Shown here one piece after another: positions 1 through 25,750 of a stretch of 26,606 nucleotides of DNA. Origin of the DNA: an uncultured virus (IMG/VR IMGVR_UViG_2061766007_000205) (lineage: Duplodnaviria; Heunggongvirae; Uroviricota; Caudoviricetes). The stretch lies in the IMG/VR virus record IMGVR_UViG_2061766007_000205, one strand, 5' to 3'. Position numbers and translations under genes: made by a program. Position 1 is the first letter of the stretch. Each line of letters opens with the position of its first letter. The notes below the pieces were generated by a model. The model was not told where the DNA came from. It searched no databases and saw nothing but the letters and a program-made list of their open reading frames with translations.

Positions 1-1
1 C

Positions 2-358
2 ACACCGCAGAGCGTTCTTGAAAAAGCACGAAATAAAAAGACGGAACTTCACAAATGTTTTGAATGGGATGATTCAGTAGCATCTGAAAAGTACCGCCTT
101 ATACAAGCAAGACAGATTATACAACATTTCGTGATAATTCACAACGAAGGTGAAGAAACCGAGCAAAAGATACGCTCATATCAGGTCACAACAGAAGCAA
201 CGAAGTATGAAAAGACCGAACTGTTTTTACAGAAGCCGGATGAATATGCCGCACTTCTGGAACGTGCAAAGGCGGAACTTGAAGCCTTTAAGAACAGATA
301 TAGGACTTTGACAGAACTTGAAAGCATTTTTGCAGAAATCGACTTATTGCTCACATAA
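2..358 (+). CDS. Conserved phage protein, 5'-truncated; partner of the RAMP-like gene (copy 1)
   Basis: The frame is open from base 2: TPQSVLEKARNKKTELHKCFEWDDSVASEKYRLIQARQIIQHFVII...ELEAFKNRYRTLTELESIFAEID. It aligns end-to-end with 1926..2369. The ORF track start at 131 is internal. Confidence 0.85.
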   Translation, partial: TPQSVLEKARNKKTELHKCFEWDDSVASEKYRLIQARQIIQHFVIIHNEGEETEQKIRSYQVTTEATKYEKTELFLQKPDEYAALLERAKAELEAFKNRYRTLTELESIFAEIDLLLT

Positions 359-364
359 GAATAA

Positions 365-580
365 GCCTTGATGGGTGGATTGTTGGCTATTTGCCAAAGT
401 AAAGGAAACTTCAATAAACAAAACCAAAGATAATCATAGCAAAGGAAACAATAGGACATTAAAAAACACTTTACATCAGATAGTCAGCAATGCACCTATC
501 AAGGCGAGCAGATTAAACATTAGAGAATAAGAACAAAATGCAGAACACTTTAGCAAACAATCAGCAAAGGAGAACAAAAA
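365..580 (+). ncRNA. Putative guide-like structured RNA, unit A: 29-bp stem enclosing a pentamer-periodic tract, followed by a second tract
   Basis: 365-393 pairs with 477-505 (G.U wobbles, one G.G mismatch). 396-480 reads as 17 pentamers, all with A at position 3. 510-559 adds 10 more such pentamers. Intergenic, directly upstream of the RAMP-like gene. Confidence 0.75.
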
Positions 581-581
581 C

Positions 582-1265
582 ATGGCAAAAAAGACAGAAA
601 CAATCGTATTGGAGCAGATAAGAAAAGGTAGTTTGATCGTAACAATCGAAGGTATGACAGACCTTCTGTTAAAGGCAATGCCCCGGTCAACAGAGTTAGA
701 GCAGATATTTAAGCAGTCACATCCGAAGGGAACAAAGATTCCTGCAAAGTTCACACAGCCGTATTGCTTGTGGGAAAAACTGATAACTTCTATTCATTGG
801 CAGAATCCTATCACGTTACATGACGATGATTGGTCGCTTTATACCGAAGATGAATGGAAGGACTACATGAAGAACAACAAGCCTTGCATCTTGGGTAAAG
901 CATTTAAGGATTCATTTAAGGAAACATTTGTTTCGTGCGGATTCAAGGAAACAACGGGCAAGGCAGGAACAGACTTTAACAGGACGGTATCAATATCCGC
1001 ATTGAACCCTGTAACATTTGTTGAAGCATCTTATGAACAGACGTTGCCGGAAACAAGCGGTTTGAATAGAACAAAAGTGTTGACGGAAACTAACAGATTC
1101 AGCGGTTGGAAGTGTGATTTTAAGATCAGTTATCTTGAATCCGCTTTCCCGAAAGAAACACTTATGGAAATCATTTCTTATGCCGGAGAGTTTATCGGTA
1201 TCGGCGCAAGACGTGGCGAAGGTTATGGAAGATATTGCATAACCAACATGAAAACAGCGGAATAA
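582..1265 (+). CDS. Stand-alone RAMP-superfamily (Cas7/Csm3-like) protein, copy 1
   Basis: N-terminal strand LIVTIEGMTDLLL; PCILGKAFKDSF resembling the RAMP P.IpGsslKG motif; C-terminal glycine-rich loop GIGARRGEGYGRY. RBS AAGGAG upstream. Confidence 0.75.
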   Translation: MAKKTETIVLEQIRKGSLIVTIEGMTDLLLKAMPRSTELEQIFKQSHPKGTKIPAKFTQPYCLWEKLITSIHWQNPITLHDDDWSLYTEDEWKDYMKNNKPCILGKAFKDSFKETFVSCGFKETTGKAGTDFNRTVSISALNPVTFVEASYEQTLPETSGLNRTKVLTETNRFSGWKCDFKISYLESAFPKETLMEIISYAGEFIGIGARRGEGYGRYCITNMKTAE

Positions 1266-1273
1266 ATAGTTGT

Positions 1274-1298
1274 AGCTGACCTAACGGCATGACGGGGT
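1274..1298 (+). promoter_or_regulatory. Conserved pseudoknot-like leader element upstream of recT (copy 1)
   Basis: agctgacctaacggcatgacggggt; near-identical copy at 3400-3423. GCUG/CGGC stem whose loop ACCU can pair with the downstream GGGU. Confidence 0.5.
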
Positions 1299-1315
1299 AG
1301 GGAAGGATATATCAC

Positions 1316-1575
1316 ATGGCAAATGAATTAACGGTTAAGGAAAAAGGTATTGCGGAGTACCTTGCAAGTCCGGCGGTCAAAGAGAATATCATCAATGTTT
1401 TAGGCGAGAAACACGCGGATGCTTTCATATCTGATTTAGTGGCTTGCGTTCAAAACAATACGGAATTAGCGAAATGCTCAAACAAGTCTATTTTTTCAGC
1501 GGCATTGTTAAGTAGGTCGATCAACTTACCACTTACACCGCAGTTATCTTATTGCTATCTCGTTCCATTTAACAA
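1316..1575 (+). CDS. recT: RecT-family ssDNA annealing protein, N-terminal part, cut by an assembly gap
   Basis: FISDLVACVQNNTELAKCSNKSIFSAALLSRSINLPLTPQLSYCYLVPF is a typical RecT N-terminus. Same syntenic slot as 3512..4279. Ends at the 10-N gap 1576-1585. Confidence 0.75.
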
Positions 1576-1737
1576 NNNNNNNNNNAAGGTACATCACCGA
1601 GAAGAAAGAACGTGATGCAAAGGTAGCGGAAATCCGCAAGAACAGGAGACTATCTCTCGAACTGTACCATCACAAGATAGAAAAGATGCGGCAGGAGGAT
1701 AAAAAGCACAAATACAAATGAAAGGAGGAAAGCACAC

Positions 1738-1926
1738 ATGATTTACAGAGTAATTCTGAAAGTTGGGTATCACAACGCACATTTCGATTTTGAAACGGTG
1801 GAAGATGCGGCAACATTCGCAAGGGTAGCATTGTCTCATATGGTTGATTGTGACGACACGAAAGCGAAAGCGTCTATCACGATGCTGATAATCGACCCTA
1901 CGAAGGAAAGTGAGGAGGATGACTGA
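1738..1926 (+). CDS. Small hypothetical phage protein
   Basis: 62-aa ORF with strong RBS AAAGGAGG; the stop overlaps the next start. Confidence 0.75.
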   Translation: MIYRVILKVGYHNAHFDFETVEDAATFARVALSHMVDCDDTKAKASITMLIIDPTKESEEDD

Positions 1927-2369
1927 TGGAAAGAATCAGATGGTCGGTTGAGGGACTTCACAAAGCTGATGCTCAAAAATGCTACAACGAATGTCAGACC
2001 CTTGAGGAAGTCACACCTGCAAACGTCCTTGAGAAAGCACGAAACAAGCGCACAGAACTTCATAAATGTTTCGAGTGGGATGACAGCATAGCGGGCGAGA
2101 AATACAGACTTATTCAGGCGAGAGACGTAATCCGGCATTTCGTGATATACACCCCTGATGAGGAAAACTTGCCGAAGATCCGTTCGTATCAGATTTCAAC
2201 AGAATGTACCAGATATGAACCTACTCGGATGTTTCTTCAGAACCCGGACGAGTACACGGAATTGCTTAAAAGGGCAAAGAATGAACTTGAAGCCTTTAAG
2301 CAGCGGTATAAGACCTTGACGGAACTTGAAACGATTTTTGAGGAGATCGACAGATTTCTCGAAGGATAG
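1926..2369 (+). CDS. Conserved phage protein (LHKCFEWDD motif); partner of the RAMP-like gene (copy 2)
   Basis: 147-aa ORF with GAGGAGG RBS; homologous to 2..358 and in the same position relative to the RNA array and RAMP gene. Confidence 0.85.
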   Translation: MERIRWSVEGLHKADAQKCYNECQTLEEVTPANVLEKARNKRTELHKCFEWDDSIAGEKYRLIQARDVIRHFVIYTPDEENLPKIRSYQISTECTRYEPTRMFLQNPDEYTELLKRAKNELEAFKQRYKTLTELETIFEEIDRFLEG

Positions 2370-2378
2370 AAATACCTA

Positions 2379-2504
2379 TAGCAAGCGTAGTGTTGGCTTT
2401 ATGCCAAAAGAAAAGTCTCAAAAAGCGAACCAAAGGAGAGATAAAAAAACCGAAAGAAACCACACTACACAAAACTAAACATAAAGTCAGCACTACGCTT
2501 GCTA
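2379..2504 (+). ncRNA. Putative guide-like RNA, unit B: 25-bp stem enclosing a pentamer tract
   Basis: 2379-2403 tagcaagcgtagtgttggctttatg pairs with 2480-2504 cataaagtcagcactacgcttgcta (two G.U). 2407-2481 is 15 pentamers, 14 with A at position 3. Confidence 0.75.
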
Positions 2505-2516
2505 AAAAAATACCAA

Positions 2517-2571
2517 AAACCAAAGCATACTTAACGAAACCAGATTAAAGGAAACGAAAGCAAATTACAGA
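2517..2571 (+). repeat. Pentamer-periodic linker tract between units B and C
   Basis: aaacc aaagc atact taacg aaacc agatt aaagg aaacg aaagc aaatt acaga: 11/11 with A at position 3. Confidence 0.75.
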
Positions 2572-2735
2572 TAGGACTTTGGCTTTATGCCAAAACTAAA
2601 GCAGACATTGAGAAGGAAAAGAACACTACACTAAAACTAACAAAAGCATGAAGTCAAACTCCTGTCTGTAATGAGACAGTACCAAAAGAAAGTCACGAAA
2701 GGAAACACACACCAAAACAAACTAAAAAACAGAAA
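2564..2735 (+). ncRNA. Putative guide-like RNA, unit C: 27-bp stem enclosing a pentamer tract, plus a trailing tract
   Basis: 2564-2590 pairs with 2646-2672 (three G.U, one C.C). 2593-2647 is 11 pentamers, 9 with A at position 3. Further AAA-NN units follow at 2674-2733 with register slips. Confidence 0.7.
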
Positions 2736-2747
2736 GGGGAAACAGCA

Positions 2748-3386
2748 ATGAAGAAAGAAGTTGAAGTTATCGAGTTTAAGCCTATTGTACCGAAAACGGT
2801 AGAAATCACGATTGAGGGTGATACGGATCTTGTGTTGAACAAGATGAATGATGTTACCACAAGACAGTTGACGGATGCCAGAAAGGACAAGGCAAAGGAT
2901 TTATCAAAGCCTAACGAATGGGAGGAGATCATCACGGCAGTTCATTGGATAAACGGCAAGCCGGAAGAGTTCTCGGAAAAGACCCTCAAGGAATGTCTGA
3001 ACCCGAAGAAAAATGCTCCTTGCATAACAGCTTTCGGACTTAAAAAGAGTTTCGGAGAGGCGCTTACTCGAAACAAAATCAGCACATACTCCACGGAGTT
3101 TAGGGCAACTGTAAATGTTATCGGGGAAAGAGCAAATCTCATTCCGATAAGGTTTTCTGAATATCATTTGGACGAAATGCTCATGTCACCGAAGAAGGGT
3201 GCGCCTGTCCTTGTAAAACTGAATAGGTTCAGCGGATGGAGTGCAAAATTCAGAATCAGTTTCCTTGAGAATGTGTACTCACTTGAGCAGATCGTGAACA
3301 TCATAAACTTATCTGGTTTCGGTATTGGTATCGGTTCAAGCAGAAACAGTGACTTTGGCAGGTATCATGTCACGAACATACAGTAA
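2748..3386 (+). CDS. Stand-alone RAMP-superfamily (Cas7/Csm3-like) protein, copy 2
   Basis: VEITIEGDTDLVLN, PCITAFGLKKSF, NRFSGW and the glycine-rich loop GFGIGIGSSRNSDFGRY. Clearly homologous to 582..1265. Confidence 0.75.
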   Translation: MKKEVEVIEFKPIVPKTVEITIEGDTDLVLNKMNDVTTRQLTDARKDKAKDLSKPNEWEEIITAVHWINGKPEEFSEKTLKECLNPKKNAPCITAFGLKKSFGEALTRNKISTYSTEFRATVNVIGERANLIPIRFSEYHLDEMLMSPKKGAPVLVKLNRFSGWSAKFRISFLENVYSLEQIVNIINLSGFGIGIGSSRNSDFGRYHVTNIQ

Positions 3387-3399
3387 ACCTCCATATATA

Positions 3400-3423
3400 A
3401 GCTGACCTATCGGCTATACGGGG
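3400..3423 (+). promoter_or_regulatory. Conserved pseudoknot-like leader element upstream of recT (copy 2)
   Basis: agctgacctatcggctatacgggg, matching 1274-1297; followed by an unstructured A-rich leader up to the recT RBS. Confidence 0.5.
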
Positions 3424-3511
3424 AAGTAAAAAACATTTTACATAAACAAAGACAATAAGAAAAAGGGAAAGAAAAATTAAAAAAATCAAACTATTTAAGA
3501 AGGGAGACAAT

Positions 3512-4279
3512 ATGGCAACGAATGACAAGAATTATTTGGTAGAGATTCACAGTGGGTTAAATGACAGCCTTGATAAGCAGGTGGCAGCATTACCCAAAAA
3601 TTTCAACAAACAAAGGTTTATGCAGAATTGCATGACAGTATTGCAGGACGGAACGGCAGACTTTTCAAAGTGCGATGCCAAAACCGTTGTCAGGACACTT
3701 CTAAAAGGAGCATTTCTCGGACTCGACTTTTTCAATGGCGAGTGTTACGCGATTCCATACGGGTCTAACGTTTCGTTTCAGACAAATTATACAGGCGAAA
3801 TCAAGCTGTGCAAGCGGTATTCAAGCAATCCCATTCAGGACATATATGCAAAGATTGTTCGTGATGGAGATCAGTTCGAAGAAATCATTGAGAACGGAAA
3901 GCAGACAGTTACGTTTCATCCAAAGGCTTTTAACAACGGAGAGATTATCGGTGCATTTGCGGTTTGTCTTTATAAAGATGGCGGCATGATATATGACACC
4001 ATGAGCGTTGCCGAAATCGAACATACTCGGCAGACATTTTCAAAAGCACCGAACAGTAAGGCATGGAAAGAGAGTTACGGGGAAATGTGCAAAAAGACCG
4101 TTCTCCGCAGACTTTGTAAACTAATTGACCTTAATTTCGATACGGCAGAACAGATGCAAGCCTTTGAGGACGGATCAGCCTTTGATGTGAAGGAACATAA
4201 GCCAGAGCCTGAAAAGGCGGTTGATGTTTACGCAGATGTCGAGGCGGTAGAGGTTACGGAGGAAACAAAGGATGAGTGA
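3512..4279 (+). CDS. recT: RecT-family recombinase / ssDNA annealing protein
   Basis: LGLDFFNGECYAIPYG, FQTNYTG, AFAVCLYKDGG and W...EMCKKTVLRRLCK motifs. Confidence 0.92.
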   Translation: MATNDKNYLVEIHSGLNDSLDKQVAALPKNFNKQRFMQNCMTVLQDGTADFSKCDAKTVVRTLLKGAFLGLDFFNGECYAIPYGSNVSFQTNYTGEIKLCKRYSSNPIQDIYAKIVRDGDQFEEIIENGKQTVTFHPKAFNNGEIIGAFAVCLYKDGGMIYDTMSVAEIEHTRQTFSKAPNSKAWKESYGEMCKKTVLRRLCKLIDLNFDTAEQMQAFEDGSAFDVKEHKPEPEKAVDVYADVEAVEVTEETKDE

Positions 4280-5135
4280 TTTCGTTCTGAATGAGCAGAC
4301 ATATTTCACACCAGAGGCCAATCTCAAGTGGCTTGACTGCTCCACATATAAGAACGTAGTCGGGACTGCCGGAAGAAAAGGCTGTGAGTGTCGCGCTTTG
4401 GCTATCGCTAAAGGTGAATACGAACAGCCAAAGACCGAGCCGCTTTTGGTCGGATCGTATGTTGATGCGTACTTTGATAATTCGCTGTCGCAGTTCTGTC
4501 TTGACAATATGGATGACGTATTCTCCAAAGCGTCTATAAAGAAGTTCGAGAAGAGTGGAAAAGCTGAAGATTTAGAGCGCCTTGCCGCCTTTAAACAGGC
4601 AGACATAATGATAAAACGTGCGATAAAAGAGCCGTTGTTTATGAAATATGTCGAGGGCGAAACACAGAAGATACTGACCGCCGAGATCGAGGGTGTGCCT
4701 ATCCGGGTGAAACTCGACTCATTTGACGGAAACAGAATCACGGACGTAAAGACTGCCGCATCCATCACAGAGACATACTATGCCAAAGATTTGGGGCAGA
4801 GACTTACCTTTATTGAGTATTTCGGATATGTGGAACAGGCATATTTCTATCAGACAGCCGTAGAGCAGAATTTTGGCAAGCGTCTGCCGTTCTATTTGGC
4901 GGTCATAACAAAAGAAAAGCACAACAATGTACCTCATCCGAGAGTAGCGGTTATACAGATCCCCGACAAAGTAATTGAGGATAAGGGGAAAGAGATCAAA
5001 GAGAAAATTCCCGGTGTTTGGAGATTGCTTCAGGGCGAGTATGAGCCTATTCCTTGTGGTACTTGCGAATGGTGTGCTGACTTCCTGCCGCTTGAGAAGG
5101 TTATCAGCATGGATGAGATCATGTTGGAGGTATAG
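4272..5135 (+). CDS. PD-(D/E)XK exonuclease (RecE / DUF3799-like), RecT partner
   Basis: LLVGSYVDAYF, RVKLDS...ITDVKT (D-x-K), Y..QAYFYQ and C-terminal CGTCEWC. Overlaps the recT stop. Confidence 0.85.
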   Translation: MSDFVLNEQTYFTPEANLKWLDCSTYKNVVGTAGRKGCECRALAIAKGEYEQPKTEPLLVGSYVDAYFDNSLSQFCLDNMDDVFSKASIKKFEKSGKAEDLERLAAFKQADIMIKRAIKEPLFMKYVEGETQKILTAEIEGVPIRVKLDSFDGNRITDVKTAASITETYYAKDLGQRLTFIEYFGYVEQAYFYQTAVEQNFGKRLPFYLAVITKEKHNNVPHPRVAVIQIPDKVIEDKGKEIKEKIPGVWRLLQGEYEPIPCGTCEWCADFLPLEKVISMDEIMLEV

Positions 5136-5138
5136 AGC

Positions 5139-5414
5139 ATGATAACCGAGTACATGGACATTTGCCTATTCTGTGGCAGAAAAAAGCAGGACGTTCATCA
5201 TTGTGTGTTCGGCACAGCGAACAGAAAACTATCGGATGCTGATGGGTTAACCGTTCCTGTTTGCCGAGAACATCACGAATTGCTGCATAAGAATGACAAG
5301 ATCAGTAAAGTAATAGGTCAGCTTGCATATGAGCGTGACAGATGCTCCGAAGGATGCACACCAGATAAGGCGCGAAAAATGTTCATTGACCGATACGGTA
5401 AAAATTACCTTTAG
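5139..5414 (+). CDS. Small HNH-like zinc-binding phage protein
   Basis: CLFCG...VHHCVFG...VPVCREHH; RBS GGAGGT. Confidence 0.7.
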   Translation: MITEYMDICLFCGRKKQDVHHCVFGTANRKLSDADGLTVPVCREHHELLHKNDKISKVIGQLAYERDRCSEGCTPDKARKMFIDRYGKNYL

Positions 5415-5542
5415 ATGATGTCAAAATGTGACTTGAAAAACACAGTAACCCGGTCGAAAGACCTAAACATATGCTTGGCAAATTGTATCACAACCAAAAG
5501 CCACACAAACGCCCCTGAAAAATGGGGCGAGAAAGGGGGAAT

Positions 5543-5821
5543 ATGAGCAGAAAGATAAGGGTTGGCGCACTCTGTAAGAAATGCAAATTCTATTCAGGGC
5601 GAACGCAGACTTGTGATTACTGCAATATCATGCACCAATCCCGACTATACACGAACGGGGTGAGGCTTGACCCTAAATTTTGCAACAAGTTTGTGATGGG
5701 AAAGAGAGAATATAACGCAGTTGATTGGAAAAACGGAAGGACAAACGGAGAACGTGACTACTCACAAGATCGTAATAGAGGGTGCATATTACGGCACAAA
5801 GACATTACCGAGCCTGAATGA
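5543..5821 (+). CDS. Cys-rich hypothetical protein
   Basis: RBS GAAAGGGGG precedes the ATG at 5543 (in frame with the 5522 ORF); CKKC and CDYC pairs. Confidence 0.6.
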   Translation: MSRKIRVGALCKKCKFYSGRTQTCDYCNIMHQSRLYTNGVRLDPKFCNKFVMGKREYNAVDWKNGRTNGERDYSQDRNRGCILRHKDITEPE

Positions 5822-6158
5822 TTATCTAGCAGAACAAGGCAGACATCCGAAAGCCGGGGGCAAACAGAAAAATGATTATATGTGGGTTTGCATAGGTGCA
5901 ATCAGGAAGTGCCTAAAAGGTTGGAAAGTGACGAATCCACCTATCATTTTGAAGTATGACTTCTACGAACCAAAAGACGGACACGCAAGGGATATAGGCA
6001 ACATTTTGGGTGAAGCTGACAAACTGTTTGAGGATGCTTTGCAAGCGTGTAAGGTCATTGGAAATGACAATCCTGATTGGGTCATAGGCATACAAGGATT
6101 TTATCATCAGACAGACGGAGAACCGTATATTGAGATTGAGATTGAGGAAAGGGGTTAG
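5754..6158 (+). CDS. rusA: RusA-like Holliday junction resolvase
   Basis: LPSLNDY, FYEP...RDIGNI...K..EDALQ...IGNDN and C-terminal IEIEI. Likely GTG start at 5754 after GGAG. Confidence 0.75.
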   Translation: MTTHKIVIEGAYYGTKTLPSLNDYLAEQGRHPKAGGKQKNDYMWVCIGAIRKCLKGWKVTNPPIILKYDFYEPKDGHARDIGNILGEADKLFEDALQACKVIGNDNPDWVIGIQGFYHQTDGEPYIEIEIEERG

Positions 6159-12093: not shown

Positions 12094-12353
12094 AAAACGA
12101 AACAGCAAGACGAGAAATAGAATCCTTGGATTATTACTTACAAAACCATACCGATGATTACAGCGAAGAAAGCCACACAGCTATGATGATGGCTAAAGAT
12201 GCTTTGAACAATACGGATGTGCTTGACAAGATAAGAGCCGAGATAGAACAAAACGCATATCCGATAGTACACGGAGTTAATAATCACGAAAAAGGAATGA
12301 CATTATATGGGATATTGCAGGTTATCGACAAATACAGGGGGAATAATGAATGA
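12090..12353 (+). CDS. Hypothetical protein
   Basis: 87 aa; VLDKIRAEIE...LQVIDKY motif typical of phage accessory genes. Confidence 0.7.
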   Translation: MKNETARREIESLDYYLQNHTDDYSEESHTAMMMAKDALNNTDVLDKIRAEIEQNAYPIVHGVNNHEKGMTLYGILQVIDKYRGNNE

Positions 12354-12531
12354 GGTTACAAGAGCGACATAAAAGAGATTTGAAAAGGCTATTGAAGAAT
12401 TGACCGCAGAATATAACAAAGCCATTGAGGATGGTTATGTGTTCAAGCCGATGGCGTTTACATTATATCACTTATGGCAGAAGTGGGATGATATAGAATA
12501 CTCAAGAATATCAAATACAGGGGGTGATTGA
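12346..12531 (+). pseudogene. Small gene interrupted by an in-frame TAA
   Basis: MNEVTRAT*KRFEKAIEELTAEYNKA...GD*; the stop is at 12370-12372. The frame fills the gap between its neighbours exactly. Confidence 0.55.
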
Positions 12532-12651
12532 ATGACCATATTTGAGGGGATGTGTATAGGCTTTTTGGCGGGAGTGGTTGGAACGCTTATTTGCGTACTA
12601 GGTGGAGCATTAATAGATCAGATAAGAAAGGGGGCAGATGATGATAAATAA
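12532..12651 (+). CDS. Small single-pass membrane protein (39 aa)
   Basis: MTIFEGMCIGFLAGVVGTLICVLGGALIDQIRK...; RBS GGGGGTG. Confidence 0.6.
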   Translation: MTIFEGMCIGFLAGVVGTLICVLGGALIDQIRKGADDDK

Positions 12652-12829
12652 CCTGCAATACAACAAAATGTATGAAGAGTATCAGAAAGACAGGAAGTTT
12701 GCTGATTACGTCCGGCGCTGCATGAGAACGTATGGAACAAATCTCCGCGAGGAACTGCATAAACAGATTACATGGGAATACTATTTGAGCGTAACGGAAG
12801 GAGTAAACAAAGAGAATGACAGAACTTAA
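12638..12829 (+). CDS. Hypothetical protein
   Basis: 63-aa ORF with AAAGGGGG RBS. Confidence 0.65.
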   Translation: MMINNLQYNKMYEEYQKDRKFADYVRRCMRTYGTNLREELHKQITWEYYLSVTEGVNKENDRT

Positions 12830-15397: not shown

Positions 15398-17362
15398 GGT
15401 ATGGATTGCCTTATAAAAGGCTCAAAGAACAGCATAGCGGAATGGATTATTGATAATCTCCCATCTGCTGATACATTTGTGGATTTATTCTTTGGCGGCG
15501 GTGCGGTGACACACAGAGCAATGCTGACCGGGAAATATAAGCACTTTATAATCAATGATATTGATGATCGTCTACCGAGACTGTTTCTCGATTGCGTACA
15601 CGGCAAGCATACAGCCGAAAAACACCCTGAATGGATAACAAGGGAAGAATTTAACAAGCGCAAGCGTGAGGATGCTTACATAGGCTTGATATGGAGTTTT
15701 GGGAATAATGGGAAAGACTATCTGTACGGCGCGGATATAGAGGACATGAAACACGCATATCATAAAGCCGTGTATTTTGACGATATAGACGCTTTGCGAC
15801 CCTTCGGGTATAAATTAACCTTGAGCAATAAAAAGGGCATATATGACCGATATCTGGACTATCAGAGGCAGATAAAAAAGCAGACCCCGGACATCCGCAA
15901 CGAAATAATTGAGCGCCAAACCGAGATCGAGAGACTACAATCCTTACAGTCGCTACAATCCTTACAGTCGCTACAATCCTTCGGGCGGGATTATCGCGAA
16001 GTGGAGATCCCCGCGGGGGCAATGATATACTGTTTTGATAAAGAAACAGAGATTTTAACCAAACGTGGATGGATAAATGTTGGTGATGTTAGACTTAATG
16101 ATTATTGTTTATCAAGGCAACCCAACACAAAAGTCCTTGCATGGAAAAAGGTTGTAAATCTAATCAGTTACAAGTATTCAGGCTATATGTATGAATATAA
16201 AGGGAAAAATGTAGATTTATGCGTAACGCCTAATCATAGGATGTTTATAGCCGCTACGCACACAAGAAAAAGAATATACATTGAGGATTTTGAAACAGCC
16301 GAGAACATTTTTAGTTGTGCGTCAAAAAAACAATTTATATCAGCAGGAGGAAAATGGGAAAACAAAGCAGATGATGATTTTATAAATATATGTGGCGATA
16401 CATTTCTCAAATATGATTTTGCATACCTATTAGGTATTTTTCTGACCGATGGGAGCGTAAATAACCAAGGCGCAATAACTATTTCGCAAACAAAAAAAGA
16501 TATTAAAACCAAAATAATTGATGTGTTAAACAAGCTGAATATCAAATATTCAGAATACACTGCCAAAGGACGCAACCCGGAATTAAGAACCTTTTATATA
16601 ACAAGAAAATACCTTCCGTTCTTTGAACAATTTTATAGAAAAAGCGATAGGAAAATACCACAAAATATCAAAGATTGGGATAAAAAACATCTTGAAAGGT
16701 TATTAGAGGGGATAATAGACGGTGATAGCGACAAAGAACGCCGTAGAATTTTTTGCGGATCAAAGTCATTAGTGGATGACATTCAAGAAATATGCTACAA
16801 ATTAGGTTTAAGTTCATGTATTCGAGAAATGCAATCAAAAAAGACATATTTGAAAGGCGAGGATAGATGGATTGAACCTAAAAGCTCCTATTATGTTCTG
16901 TCTATCAATCATAGGGAACATTTGTGCATAAGAAAAGACAATATACACAAAATACCATATGATGATGTTGTAAATTGCGTAACTTTAGAAGGTTGGCATA
17001 CTGTATTAGTACGGCGAAATGGGAAACCTATATGGTGCGGTCAATGCGATATACCGTACTTCCAAACAGACTGCGGTAAGTATGACGGGTTTAACCACGA
17101 GAGATTTTATGAGTGGGCTTGGGAACAGGACAACATATTCATATCCGAGTACACAATGCCGGATGATTTTATAGAGGTGGCGAAAATTGAAAAGACCATA
17201 CTTTCTGCGGCAAACGGAAACAGTCAGAAAGCCGAGGAAAAGATATATACTAATAGGCGCACTTATGATCGTTTGGATGAGGACTTCAAAGAGTGTATCA
17301 AATTCAATAGAGCAGAACAGATGACGATGTTTGACTTCGGGTACTGCCCGTATCAGGAATAA
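15394..17362 (+). CDS. D12-class (Dam-like) DNA adenine methyltransferase with an intein; apparent +1 frameshift near the start
   Basis: MRYGLPYK (from 15394) / GSKNSIA, FVDLFFGGGAV motif I, IINDID, and catalytic IY|CDIPY reconstituted after intein removal, then FISEY. Confidence 0.85.
15935..15979 (+). repeat. In-frame tandem repeat encoding (LQS)5
   Basis: ctacaatccttacagtcg x2.5. Confidence 0.85.
16031..17044 (+). mobile_element. Intein with LAGLIDADG homing endonuclease (338 aa)
   Basis: Starts CFDKETEILTKRGW; block B VTPNHRM; YLLGIFLTDGS and LLEGIIDGDS; ends VRRNGKPIWCGQ before the +1 Cys. More AT-rich than its flanks. Confidence 0.92.
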
Positions 17363-22291: not shown

Positions 22292-22895
22292 ATGAATCTT
22301 GACGAGGACGGATATATTAACACCGACTATTATATAAACGCATCTATTGACATCATAACACGCGCAGCAGAGGAGCGCGGGCAAGATCCCAGACACTTGA
22401 CAACAAATGACGCTTTCGCATTATACAGAAGAGTATATAACACCCTATTTAAGCCAGAGCGTAGCGGGGGAGAGGAGAAGAGTCACCTTTTCGAGCCGGG
22501 ATGCAGTGTTAAATATAACGCCGAGAACCTGAAAAGACTCCTGATGGTATATAGTGCGGTCTNNNNNNNNNNNNNNNGTGGACGGGTTGCAGTGGTTAAC
22601 GGGTGTATATATCGATACGGTGGAAAAGTATGTTACCGGGGCGCGGTCATTCGTTCAAAATATCCGAAAAGACAACATACAAAACAGACTCCAGGCTTTC
22701 CCGATTGGAATAGTTACACTTGCAAATAACGACATCGACACGGGTCTTTGCTACAACCGCCAGAACATCACCGACCGGGCGACAGTTAGCAAGGCATTAA
22801 ACTTCTCCGACCTTGTGAGAATAGGTGAGAATGTCACCCAAAAAGAGAACGTTTCACAGCTAGAAACGGCACAAACACAAGATATTGTGGATTGA
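22292..22895 (+). CDS. Putative terminase small subunit (split by an N-gap)
   Basis: Two ORF halves joined across the gap at 22563-22577; lies upstream of the large terminase; TTGACA at 22238. Assignment is mainly positional. Confidence 0.5.
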
Positions 22896-24215: not shown

Positions 24216-25406
24216 ATGGCGAACTTAAATGATCTAGTCGGACTAGTGGAAAATCTCGACCGAGAATACGAGAACCGGGGGTATCTGGATGAGGTCATGT
24301 TGGATGCCTACGTGAAGTATGCGACATTTGCGATATTTCAGCTTGGGGAATACAGATACGGACGGGAATTGGCAAAACGGGCGACCGATTTGGTGACTGA
24401 AACGGTCAAGAAGGCAAATTTCCGTGATATCTGGGACATGGAACTGAAGATATCGGGGATGCAGTCATACTTGTTGGACGGATTTTATGATTTGTGTCTG
24501 TTACGTTCGTTTTGGGATCTAGAATGTTTCATGTTCTATATGGAGCGCGACAGGGCGCAGTCAAAGAGGTTTTACCTGCCGAGAATGAACCCGCTTCAGG
24601 TGGNNNNNNNNNNNNNTGTCGAACAGGGTGATAAAGTTCTTGGGGGTATCAGAACCACCGAGAACGGGGAAGTCTACTCTGTGCATTTTTTTCCTTACAT
24701 GGACGGGACTGCGGCGGCCAAACTCACACAATGCAATGGGCGGTCATTCAGGTGTCTTAACGAAGGGGTTTTACAAGGAACTTATGAACCTTTTCGACAG
24801 CGCGGAATACCGATTTGCGGAGATATACAAGTTTTGGCACGAGAAAGAGCAGAAAGTCATCTTGGATAAGTCGGCAGAGGATCTGACTATCAATTTAGGC
24901 AAGCCGGACAGATTTTCGACAATCACCTGCCGTTCGATAGATGCGACATGGACGGGCGCGGTAGATGTATCGTGGGACGGGGTACTGTATGTCGACGACC
25001 TTGTGCGAGATCGTGAACATTCGCTGTCACCTATACGAATGGAGAACACATGGCAGGAATACCTGAACAAGATGGTTGACCGAAAAAGCGGATATAACCC
25101 GATGCCGGAAACACTTGACTTGGGATTTGATATAGACATACATTTCGACTTTGCGGGTGCGTGTGAACTGATGGTAGGTACATTGTGGAATGTTTACGAC
25201 CCACTGTACCGACTTGAACAGCTGTATGCGGATGACCCACTATACAGATTTCGGAAAATCCCGGCGCTCGATGACAATGACGAGAGCAACTTTGACTATC
25301 CTGTGAACGGGTTTACCACGGAATACTACCGCGATATGCGCGAGAGGCTAGACGAACCTGAATGGATGGCAAAGTATCAGCAAGCGCCGTTTGTGCGTGA
25401 AGGTAT
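24216..25406 (+). CDS. terL: Terminase large subunit, N-terminal ATPase part (gap-split, 3'-truncated)
   Basis: KRFYLPR, Walker A EPPRTGKST, Walker B VLYVDDL, motif III VGTLW, IPALD, W.AKYQQ.P. The frame shifts across the gap at 24604-24616. Confidence 0.88.
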
Positions 25407-25416
25407 NNNNNNNNNN

Positions 25417-25529
25417 GACTATCCTGTGAACGGATTTACCACGGAATACTACCGCGATATGCGTGAGAGGCTAGATGAGCCTGAATGGATGGCAAAGTAT
25501 CAGCAAGCGCCGTTTGTGCGTGAAGGTAT
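25417..25529 (+). repeat. Allelic duplicate of 25294..25406 (assembly bubble)
   Basis: 113-bp copy with 4 synonymous differences, flanked by 10-N gaps. Confidence 0.85.
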
Positions 25530-25539
25530 NNNNNNNNNN

Positions 25540-25750
25540 CGGATTATCTCAATTCCCTATCGGCATGGTAACGCTAGCTAATAACGACATCGACACGGGA
25601 CTTTGCTACAATCGGCAGAACATCACCGACCGGGCGACAGTCAGCAAGGCCTTAAACTTCTCTGACCTTGTGCGAATAGGTGAGAATGTCACGCAGAAAG
25701 ATAATGTTTCACAGCTAGAAACGGCACAAACACAAGATATTGTGGATTGA
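25540..25750 (+). CDS. Variant C-terminus of the putative terminase small subunit
   Basis: FPIGMVTLANNDIDTGLCYNRQ...QDIVD is nearly identical to the end of 22292..22895, with many synonymous changes. Confidence 0.65.

Follow-up and report, generated by a model that had tools for sequence, protein, structure and literature searches.

A VIPR variant with an A-rich guide scaffold beside phage recombination genes, with guides that match genes of a competing mobile element

The window, a stretch of 26,606 nucleotides from an uncultured Caudoviricetes virus (IMG/VR record IMGVR_UViG_2061766007_000205), opens on a compact two-gene cassette that is referred to here as copy 1. Its first gene encodes a partner protein, which is 148 aa at full length in the two related contigs L001, a phage contig bearing an integrase, and L173. 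An intergenic stretch of 223 bases separates it from a gene for a RAMP protein of the Vipr family, which is followed by a short leader element and the start of recT (Table 1). The same order of partner, RNA region, RAMP, leader element and recT recurs at 1926-4279 (copy 2), as described in the initial annotation. All cassette genes lie on the + strand, with recT and a DUF3799 exonuclease gene directly downstream. These neighbors do not form a multi-gene cas operon of the Class 1 CRISPR-Cas type. No direct-repeat CRISPR array was found in window positions 1-6000, and PADLOC returned only weak scores for Cas6/Cas10.

Table 1. Features of the two cassettes in the window
Feature	Coordinates	Strand	Remarks
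Copy 1 partner gene; Vap-like accessory protein, phrog_15946	2-358	+	5' end cut by window start
Copy 1 long stem, arms 365-393 / 477-505	365-505	+	guide tract enclosed
Copy 1 small alternative hairpin at 5' edge of tract	383-397	+	exclusive with long stem; candidate handle
Copy 1 guide tract	396-480	+	17 pentamers, A-rich trinucleotide + variable NN
Copy 1 second pentamer run	505-559	+	outside stem, 11 units
Copy 1 Vipr-family RAMP gene	582-1265	+	227 aa
Copy 1 leader element	about 1269-1298	+	conserved hairpin + 2-3 bp pseudoknot
recT start of phage 1 (Pfam RecT)	1316-1575	+	cut by gap
10-N gap	1576-1585		misjoin between two phage sequences
Copy 2 partner gene	1926-2369	+	other phage
Copy 2 stem 1	2379-2504	+	tract 2407-2476 matches VRR-NUC gene
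Copy 2 pentamer run	2512-2571	+	between stems
Copy 2 stem 2	2564-2672	+	tract 2593-2647 matches ResIII/DEAD-type helicase gene
Copy 2 Vipr-family RAMP gene	2748-3386	+	212 aa
Copy 2 leader element and downstream tract	3392-3482	+	tract 3423-3482

The guide tract of copy 1 is built of pentamers in which an A-rich trinucleotide, the scaffold, is combined with two variable bases (NN). Over positions 401-480, all 16 units have A as their third base, at period 5 (p 4e-4, 5000 shuffles). The enclosing stem has a z-score of -8.6, and none of 200 shuffles was equally stable; its predicted folding energy is -48.1 kcal/mol on the + strand and -35.7 kcal/mol on the - strand. The second run of pentamers is weaker; it is called by the tract finder and is unchanged in L001, and a phase test over 506-581 was not significant (p 0.64). 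An earlier count of one stem-enclosed unit in copy 1 and two in copy 2 holds for the long stems, and copy 1 also carries pentamers outside its stem.

Related loci share this arrangement. Among 54 IMG/VR loci, a set without the partial match L055, 38 carry A-rich pentamers between an upstream partner gene and the RAMP gene. The other 16 are more distant (23-32% identity); their arrays are of the GGY/NN type and lie downstream, as does a partner of the same family in 15 of them. A further 21 loci of the copy 1 subclade, a count that omits the partial matches L194 and L195, are also A-rich. A motif-free period-5 test gave a z-score of at least 2.0 upstream in 48 of the 48 distinct A-rich loci with sequence there and of about 3 or more in 44 of them, compared with 2 of 54 control stretches above 2. 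Periodicity is thus present beside the homologs rather than absent from most of them, as the initial annotation expected of a genuine system.

Over 1,804 inner units, the scaffold of the A-rich clade is ACA (38-39%), ATA or AAA, which can be summarized as AHA, and its third position is A in 81-92% of units. GGY, the scaffold of canonical type II VIPR, makes up 0.1-0.25% of units. The NN positions carry 1.94-1.98 bits of entropy and the scaffold 0.5-1.6 bits. Clade tracts have a median length of 13 units, within the 9-16 units of VIPR pentamer arrays, and the copy 1 tract has 17. The tract finder, which was seeded with the authors' own A-rich matrix, called 195 upstream tracts compared with 1.4 in shuffles. 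Stems flank 93 of 143 tracts and none when the flanks are shuffled. Read on the + strand, these stems contain 265 G-U and 82 A-C pairs, an excess which indicates that the guide RNA runs in gene direction. Of 139 tracts, 58, that of copy 1 among them, have a small hairpin at their 5' edge, compared with 7.8 in shuffles and 29 at the 3' edge. The 3' side of the copy 1 tract is the second arm of its stem, and tracts that lie downstream of leader elements have a pseudoknot-like hairpin on their 5' side (7 sequences). A search of window 1-4000 against Rfam at E 10 gave two chance matches and assigned neither the stems nor the leader to a family.

Longer or additional arrays also occur. In L186, L187 and L193, all of the copy 1 subclade, the RAMP gene is preceded by arrays that span 1.2-1.5 kb and contain many stem-loop units. 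L036 contains a second periodic stretch (about 12100-12750; z 7.8) that lies 1.5 kb downstream of the RAMP gene, is G-rich on the + strand and is perhaps an orphan or opposite-strand array.

The AlphaFold model of the copy 1 RAMP (pLDDT 90.9) contains a predicted RRM core, thumb and G-loop, features common to the Cas7/Csm3 RAMPs of Class 1 systems. RAMPs of the Csm3/Cmr/Cas7 type are the top matches in both structure searches (Foldseek E 3.8e-7; Z 12.1, rmsd 4.2 and 160 aligned residues in the other). Class 1 CRISPR systems use a contiguous guide, whereas the guide here is gapped and neither a CRISPR array nor a cas operon lies beside the RAMP gene. Pfam contains no family for either RAMP of the window. 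When a profile of 25 family members was compared with the PDB at E up to 1, its sole match was the SUSP1 Vipr (E 5.3e-7), and hhalign matched the family profile to a near relative of SUSP1 Vipr from phage SapYZU01 with a probability of 92%. The two RAMPs of the window had been considered alike at motif level only; their alignment instead spans both proteins in full (31% identity, E 2e-30). The copy 2 RAMP matches 1,904 protein clusters, for most of which the scaffold type is unchecked.

In SUSP1 Vipr, the G-loop residues D177 and W178 read G1 and G2 of the scaffold, and the third scaffold base sits in a purine-excluding pocket (10.64898/2026.04.26.720927). This acidic-Trp pair, which is characteristic of canonical type II VIPR, is found in 12 of 12 distinct GGY loci and in 0 of 49 A-rich loci, so that the G-loop covaries with the scaffold. 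Because the A-rich clade places a purine where the SUSP1 pocket excludes one, the SUSP1 structural model is not transferable unchanged. A quick tree with 75 rows shows a single switch of scaffold label, on one branch (support 78; long branches). This tree omits L198, L201-L203, L211 and L216, and three of its rows are called A-rich by default, having few or no strict AHA runs. Copy 1 falls within a separate subclade of 21 rows (support 99) and copy 2 within another, and with two subclades this deep the copies do constitute the independent evolutionary replicate that had been proposed. No relative of the copy 1 subclade was confirmed in GTDB genomes.

The partner protein has no family and no nuclease match in Pfam, and a PDB sequence search also returned no match. 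Its predicted model (pLDDT 83) gave a best structure-search Z of 6.3, with matches that are mostly helical hairpins and uninformative, and the Atlas clusters that match it are unnamed. Its invariant residues are His, Trp, Arg, Tyr and Glu. The partner has no detectable relation to the SUSP1-like Vap, as no profile match was found with the gene beside SUSP1-like Vipr (hhalign 0.3%). The partner family also adjoins GGY-type Viprs, as well as Vipr relatives in Gordonia, Mycobacterium and cyanobacterial phages. It is the upstream gene in all 38 A-rich IMG/VR loci, and the cassette has the composition of a minimal VIPR locus, namely an accessory gene beside the RAMP gene in a phage without a CRISPR array. 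RAMP homology, together with a partner common to GGY-type Vipr loci, therefore links the family to canonical VIPR by both genes.

In VIPR guides, the NN doublets pair with DNA and one base is skipped (10.64898/2026.04.26.720920). Twelve copy 1 units were written with a skip of one base, with both alleles allowed at unit 7, and this pattern has at least 117 exact matches in IMG/VR; the reversed unit order has none. Among the matches listed, 117 of 117 encode the same helicase peptide in one frame, with the skipped base at codon position 3 as in the wobble skip of VIPR, and the five units outside the pattern match in 100, 22, 44, 88 and 11 of these 117. The target is the motif V region of an SNF2-type helicase gene, on which the best score is 33/34 for the window allele and 34/34 for the L001 allele, compared with at most 24/34 for skips of 0, 2 or 3 and at most 25 for shuffles. 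A first scan confined to VIPR loci gave 25/34 against 24 for shuffles. In L063, the target helicase gene follows a D5 primase gene, a VRR-NUC gene and what is presumably a DNA polymerase fragment (named by likeness, with no Pfam match), and it is followed by ParB-methylase and SAM synthetase genes.

The window allele mismatches all 117 listed targets at unit 7, with 16 of 17 units still matching, and no exact target for this allele was found in IMG/VR. The same allele occurs in L173 and in an independent sequencing run, X4. Within the tract, the window and L001 have three differences, two of which fall on scaffold positions rather than NN. An exact scan found no target for the second copy 1 tract (505-559). 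In the family of one relative's host, a Blautia MAG, 4 of 401 genomes have sites scoring 31/34 (control 0), and five host genomes of relatives contain no target site. No self target was found in 4 of 4 phage records searched, L001 among them. As in VIPR, targets lie in competing mobile elements and, in these records, not in self.

For the first guide of copy 2, 112 sites match 13 units exactly, and its score on a VRR-NUC gene is 28/28. The guide of the second stem matches exactly at 4 sites, each in frame within the same helicase motif, and 3 of 3 of its targets tested are ResIII/DEAD helicases; no target was found for the run between the stems. Among 80 copy 2 VRR-NUC loci fetched with flanks, 75 contain the copy 1 target (27/34 or better) 1.2-1.7 kb downstream on the same strand. 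The NN content of the two copies, which the initial annotation called unrelated, does differ as strings, yet both copies aim at adjacent genes of one element class. Its proposal of programmable NN guides is upheld by the combination of a RAMP with a pentamer RNA and by targets decoded through skip-1 matches.

In the clade as a whole, the best 10-unit window at skip 1 scores at least 19/20 for 31 of 131 tracts within 3.65 Mb of fetched DNA, compared with 0, 0 and 1 tracts at skips 0, 2 and 3 and none in shuffled order; the tracts are not independent, since near-identical phages contribute to them. For the other 100 tracts, no target was found in the 3.65 Mb. The matches lie in frame in 27 of 31 cases, in open frames of at least 190 codons and many in the same element class, and 27 of 31 targets are read as the coding strand. 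Some targets carry motifs that we take to be those of a polymerase or a terminase. One L037 tract (L037:4049-4108) scores 24/24 with skip 1 on the non-coding strand in L056. With skip 3 it also reaches 19/20 in L029, on the - strand near 2317, at what may be an unmasked related array.

The leader element folds as a hairpin with a short pseudoknot, in a structure drawn by the authors from few sequences (7 instances, pairing in 83% of cells, a single clean compensatory pair). It marks the point at which sibling phages diverge and the swap point of the downstream cassette, whose genes vary freely among relatives. A further tract lies behind the leader in L001, L173, X4 and copy 2, whereas the leader of window copy 1 is followed directly by recT. 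The downstream guide of L001 (10721-10775) matches the exonuclease gene of its sibling L173 (L173:6843) at 22/22 and its own contig at 14/22, and that of L173 matches the recT of the window's phage 2 at 21/24 and its own contig at 15/24. The downstream tract of copy 2 decodes to a RecT motif, which its own recT matches at 20/24. L001 and L173 have near-identical Viprs, with guide and recombination genes swapping together. Downstream tracts of L013, L014, L020 and L004 match the next gene downstream in siblings L030, L013 and L026, presumably a metallo-hydrolase-like gene. In L173, another leader element precedes the partner gene (L173:3968-4080) and is itself followed by A-rich pentamers.

Copy 1 is most likely a phage-borne VIPR module with a changed scaffold that would silence the helicase gene of a rival element. 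The partner-array-vipr cassette would be transcribed with the early recombination genes, and each stem-loop would yield one guide RNA on release from the stems, with the small 5' hairpin as a putative guide handle. By analogy with SUSP1, Vipr protomers would line the pentamers as a filament, one per unit, each gripping the A-rich trinucleotide and exposing NN. The doublets would then pair with double-stranded DNA as a triplex in which every third target base is skipped, and binding within the gene would repress it without cutting, with the partner probably acting as a helper. Since the copy 1 guide reads like the helicase coding strand, it would pair with the template strand and skip the wobble base. 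DNA is the likelier substrate, since most guides share the sense of the mRNA.

The same guide and code may instead lead to cutting, nicking or recombination of the target by the partner or the RecT/exonuclease, an outcome suggested by the position of the cassette directly before recT and the DUF3799 exonuclease gene, by targets deep within genes and by the invariant residues of the partner. It is improbable, however, as the partner has no Pfam nuclease match, the downstream genes vary freely, and published phage VIPRs repress (10.64898/2026.04.26.720920).

Less probable still is a guide transcribed from the - strand (T-rich TDT/NN) that pairs with target mRNA as in type III CRISPR RAMPs. The G-U excess in the stems, the greater stability of the copy 1 stem on the + strand, the + orientation of every cassette gene and the binding of DNA on either strand by SUSP1 VIPR all speak against it, although the nearest folds are type III Csm3/Cmr subunits and a - strand RNA would be antisense to mRNA at the 27 of 31 targets read as coding strand. 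There is a similarly slim chance that window copy 1 is a decaying module, with a mismatched guide at unit 7 and its downstream guide lost, given that L001, L173 and X4 have a tract behind the leader. Its reading frames are nevertheless open and conserved, 16 of 17 units still match, and the same allele recurs in X4 and L173.

The two copies belong to two phages rather than one. The initial annotation had pointed to the 10-N gap and cautioned that two related phages might be joined in the scaffold. The gap is present, contig depth differs about threefold across it (32-36 over 1-1555 and 11.5-16 over 1587-4300 in two runs of the probable source sample), and contigs continue into different sequence beyond 1575 on the left side and ahead of 1587 on the right. 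Copy 1 is present at 97.5-97.8% in L001 and L173, where different recombinase genes follow it and where the stretch fetched contains no intact copy 2. The depth difference, the divergence of contigs at the gap and these other recombinase genes argue that two phages were joined, and the suggestion that both copies occupy one genome fails on the unequal coverage and on the lack of any contig bridging 1576-1585. A tandem pair of VIPR modules in one phage genome, which the adjacency and same orientation of the copies in the window would suggest, can practically be dismissed on that evidence, on the separate contigs of the two copies in X4 and on the occurrence of copy 1 without intact copy 2 in L001 and L173.

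In run X9, a related-phage contig joins 1924 to 3351, lacking the partner, the array and most of vipr while keeping the leader; this empty site marks copy 2 as an accessory cassette. Between 17595 and 25539, the window contains many N gaps and duplicated stretches (for example, ORF 24628-25581 has a repeated end), and ORFs 22554-22895 and 25475-25750 have sequence in common. The patchy scaffold may therefore hold further misjoins. A 653-aa ORF at 15401-17362 resembles, by eye, what we take to be a DNA adenine methylase split by an intein with a homing endonuclease.

The cassette resembles VIPR, as described for SUSP1 and P. fulva type II with GGY/NN vrRNA and Vap, in its phage two-gene locus with a single small RAMP, its pentamer guides of about 13 units (clade median), its one-base wobble skip, its rival-element targets and the lack of a self target (10.64898/2026.04.26.720920, 10.64898/2026.04.26.720927). 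It differs from that system in its AHA scaffold, with GGY under 0.3%, and in a G-loop without the acidic-Trp pair. In addition, SUSP1-clade VIPR has a 3' pseudoknot tail, whereas guides here lie in long stems with a 5' hairpin. The VIPR definition admits "a related consensus" to GGY, and the alternative repeats given in the available text (NNNGG, YNNNG and NNNNG) all retain a G (10.64898/2026.04.26.720920). GGY-type VIPRs of Clostridia, Gordonia and Mycobacterium phages (L038-L054, L223-L225) have the same partner family, and their RAMPs, also of the same family, are 23-32% identical to those of the window. They differ in their vipr-array-partner order and in arrays without the A-rich scaffold, and they fall on the opposite side of the branch with support 78. 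Copy 1 is a VIPR variant, in agreement with VIPR in protein, locus and code and at variance with its canonical type in the GGY scaffold and the G-loop.

The COMPASS study describes 21 clusters beside Vipr-like folds whose cores, for example GAC, CAC, WGT and TGH, are other than GGY (10.64898/2026.10.21.760802). Both sets have period-5 arrays by Vipr-like folds, and WGT/NN and TGH/NN resemble the opposite strand of the A-rich clade. A rough copy of the COMPASS scoring gave TGY and TRT on the - strand of this clade and RCA and AYA on the + strand, so the A-rich clade may be among the 21 clusters, as far as the published passages allow a comparison. The text passages of that source mention neither targets nor a skip rule, and they give no strand, no stems and no changes in the G-loop (10.64898/2026.10.21.760802). 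A further paper belongs to the literature on known systems (10.64898/2026.10.15.759431). No literature on A-rich scaffolds, stem-enclosed guides or their targets was found in a search that covered few subscription journals and on which supplements may bear. Non-GGY VIPR repeats are thus already published, possibly including the A-rich clade, and no targets for them were found in the literature, as represented by the available text.

A bolder reading, which is tentative and falls somewhat below an even chance, regards the clade as a new VIPR class orthogonal to GGY, with a rebuilt G-loop, guides cut from stems with a 5' hairpin handle and a recombination-linked guide slot that attacks sibling cassettes. 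In such a class, the G-loop would recognize an AHA scaffold that is free of G and has a purine at the position where SUSP1 allows none. The guide slot, linked to the recombination cassette, would attack the alternative cassettes of siblings that share the Vipr, and the cassette would therefore act as a selfish allele.

The gapped code of VIPR does not depend on a GGY scaffold, and the scaffold change is tied to named protein residues. GGY-based guide callers would miss A-rich arrays, and for programmable repression the AHA and GGY scaffolds would together offer a natural orthogonal set. For a large gut-phage family, the matches supply natural targets, and the one PolA-primase-VRR-NUC-SNF2 element on which many guides converge stands out as a major rival of these phages.
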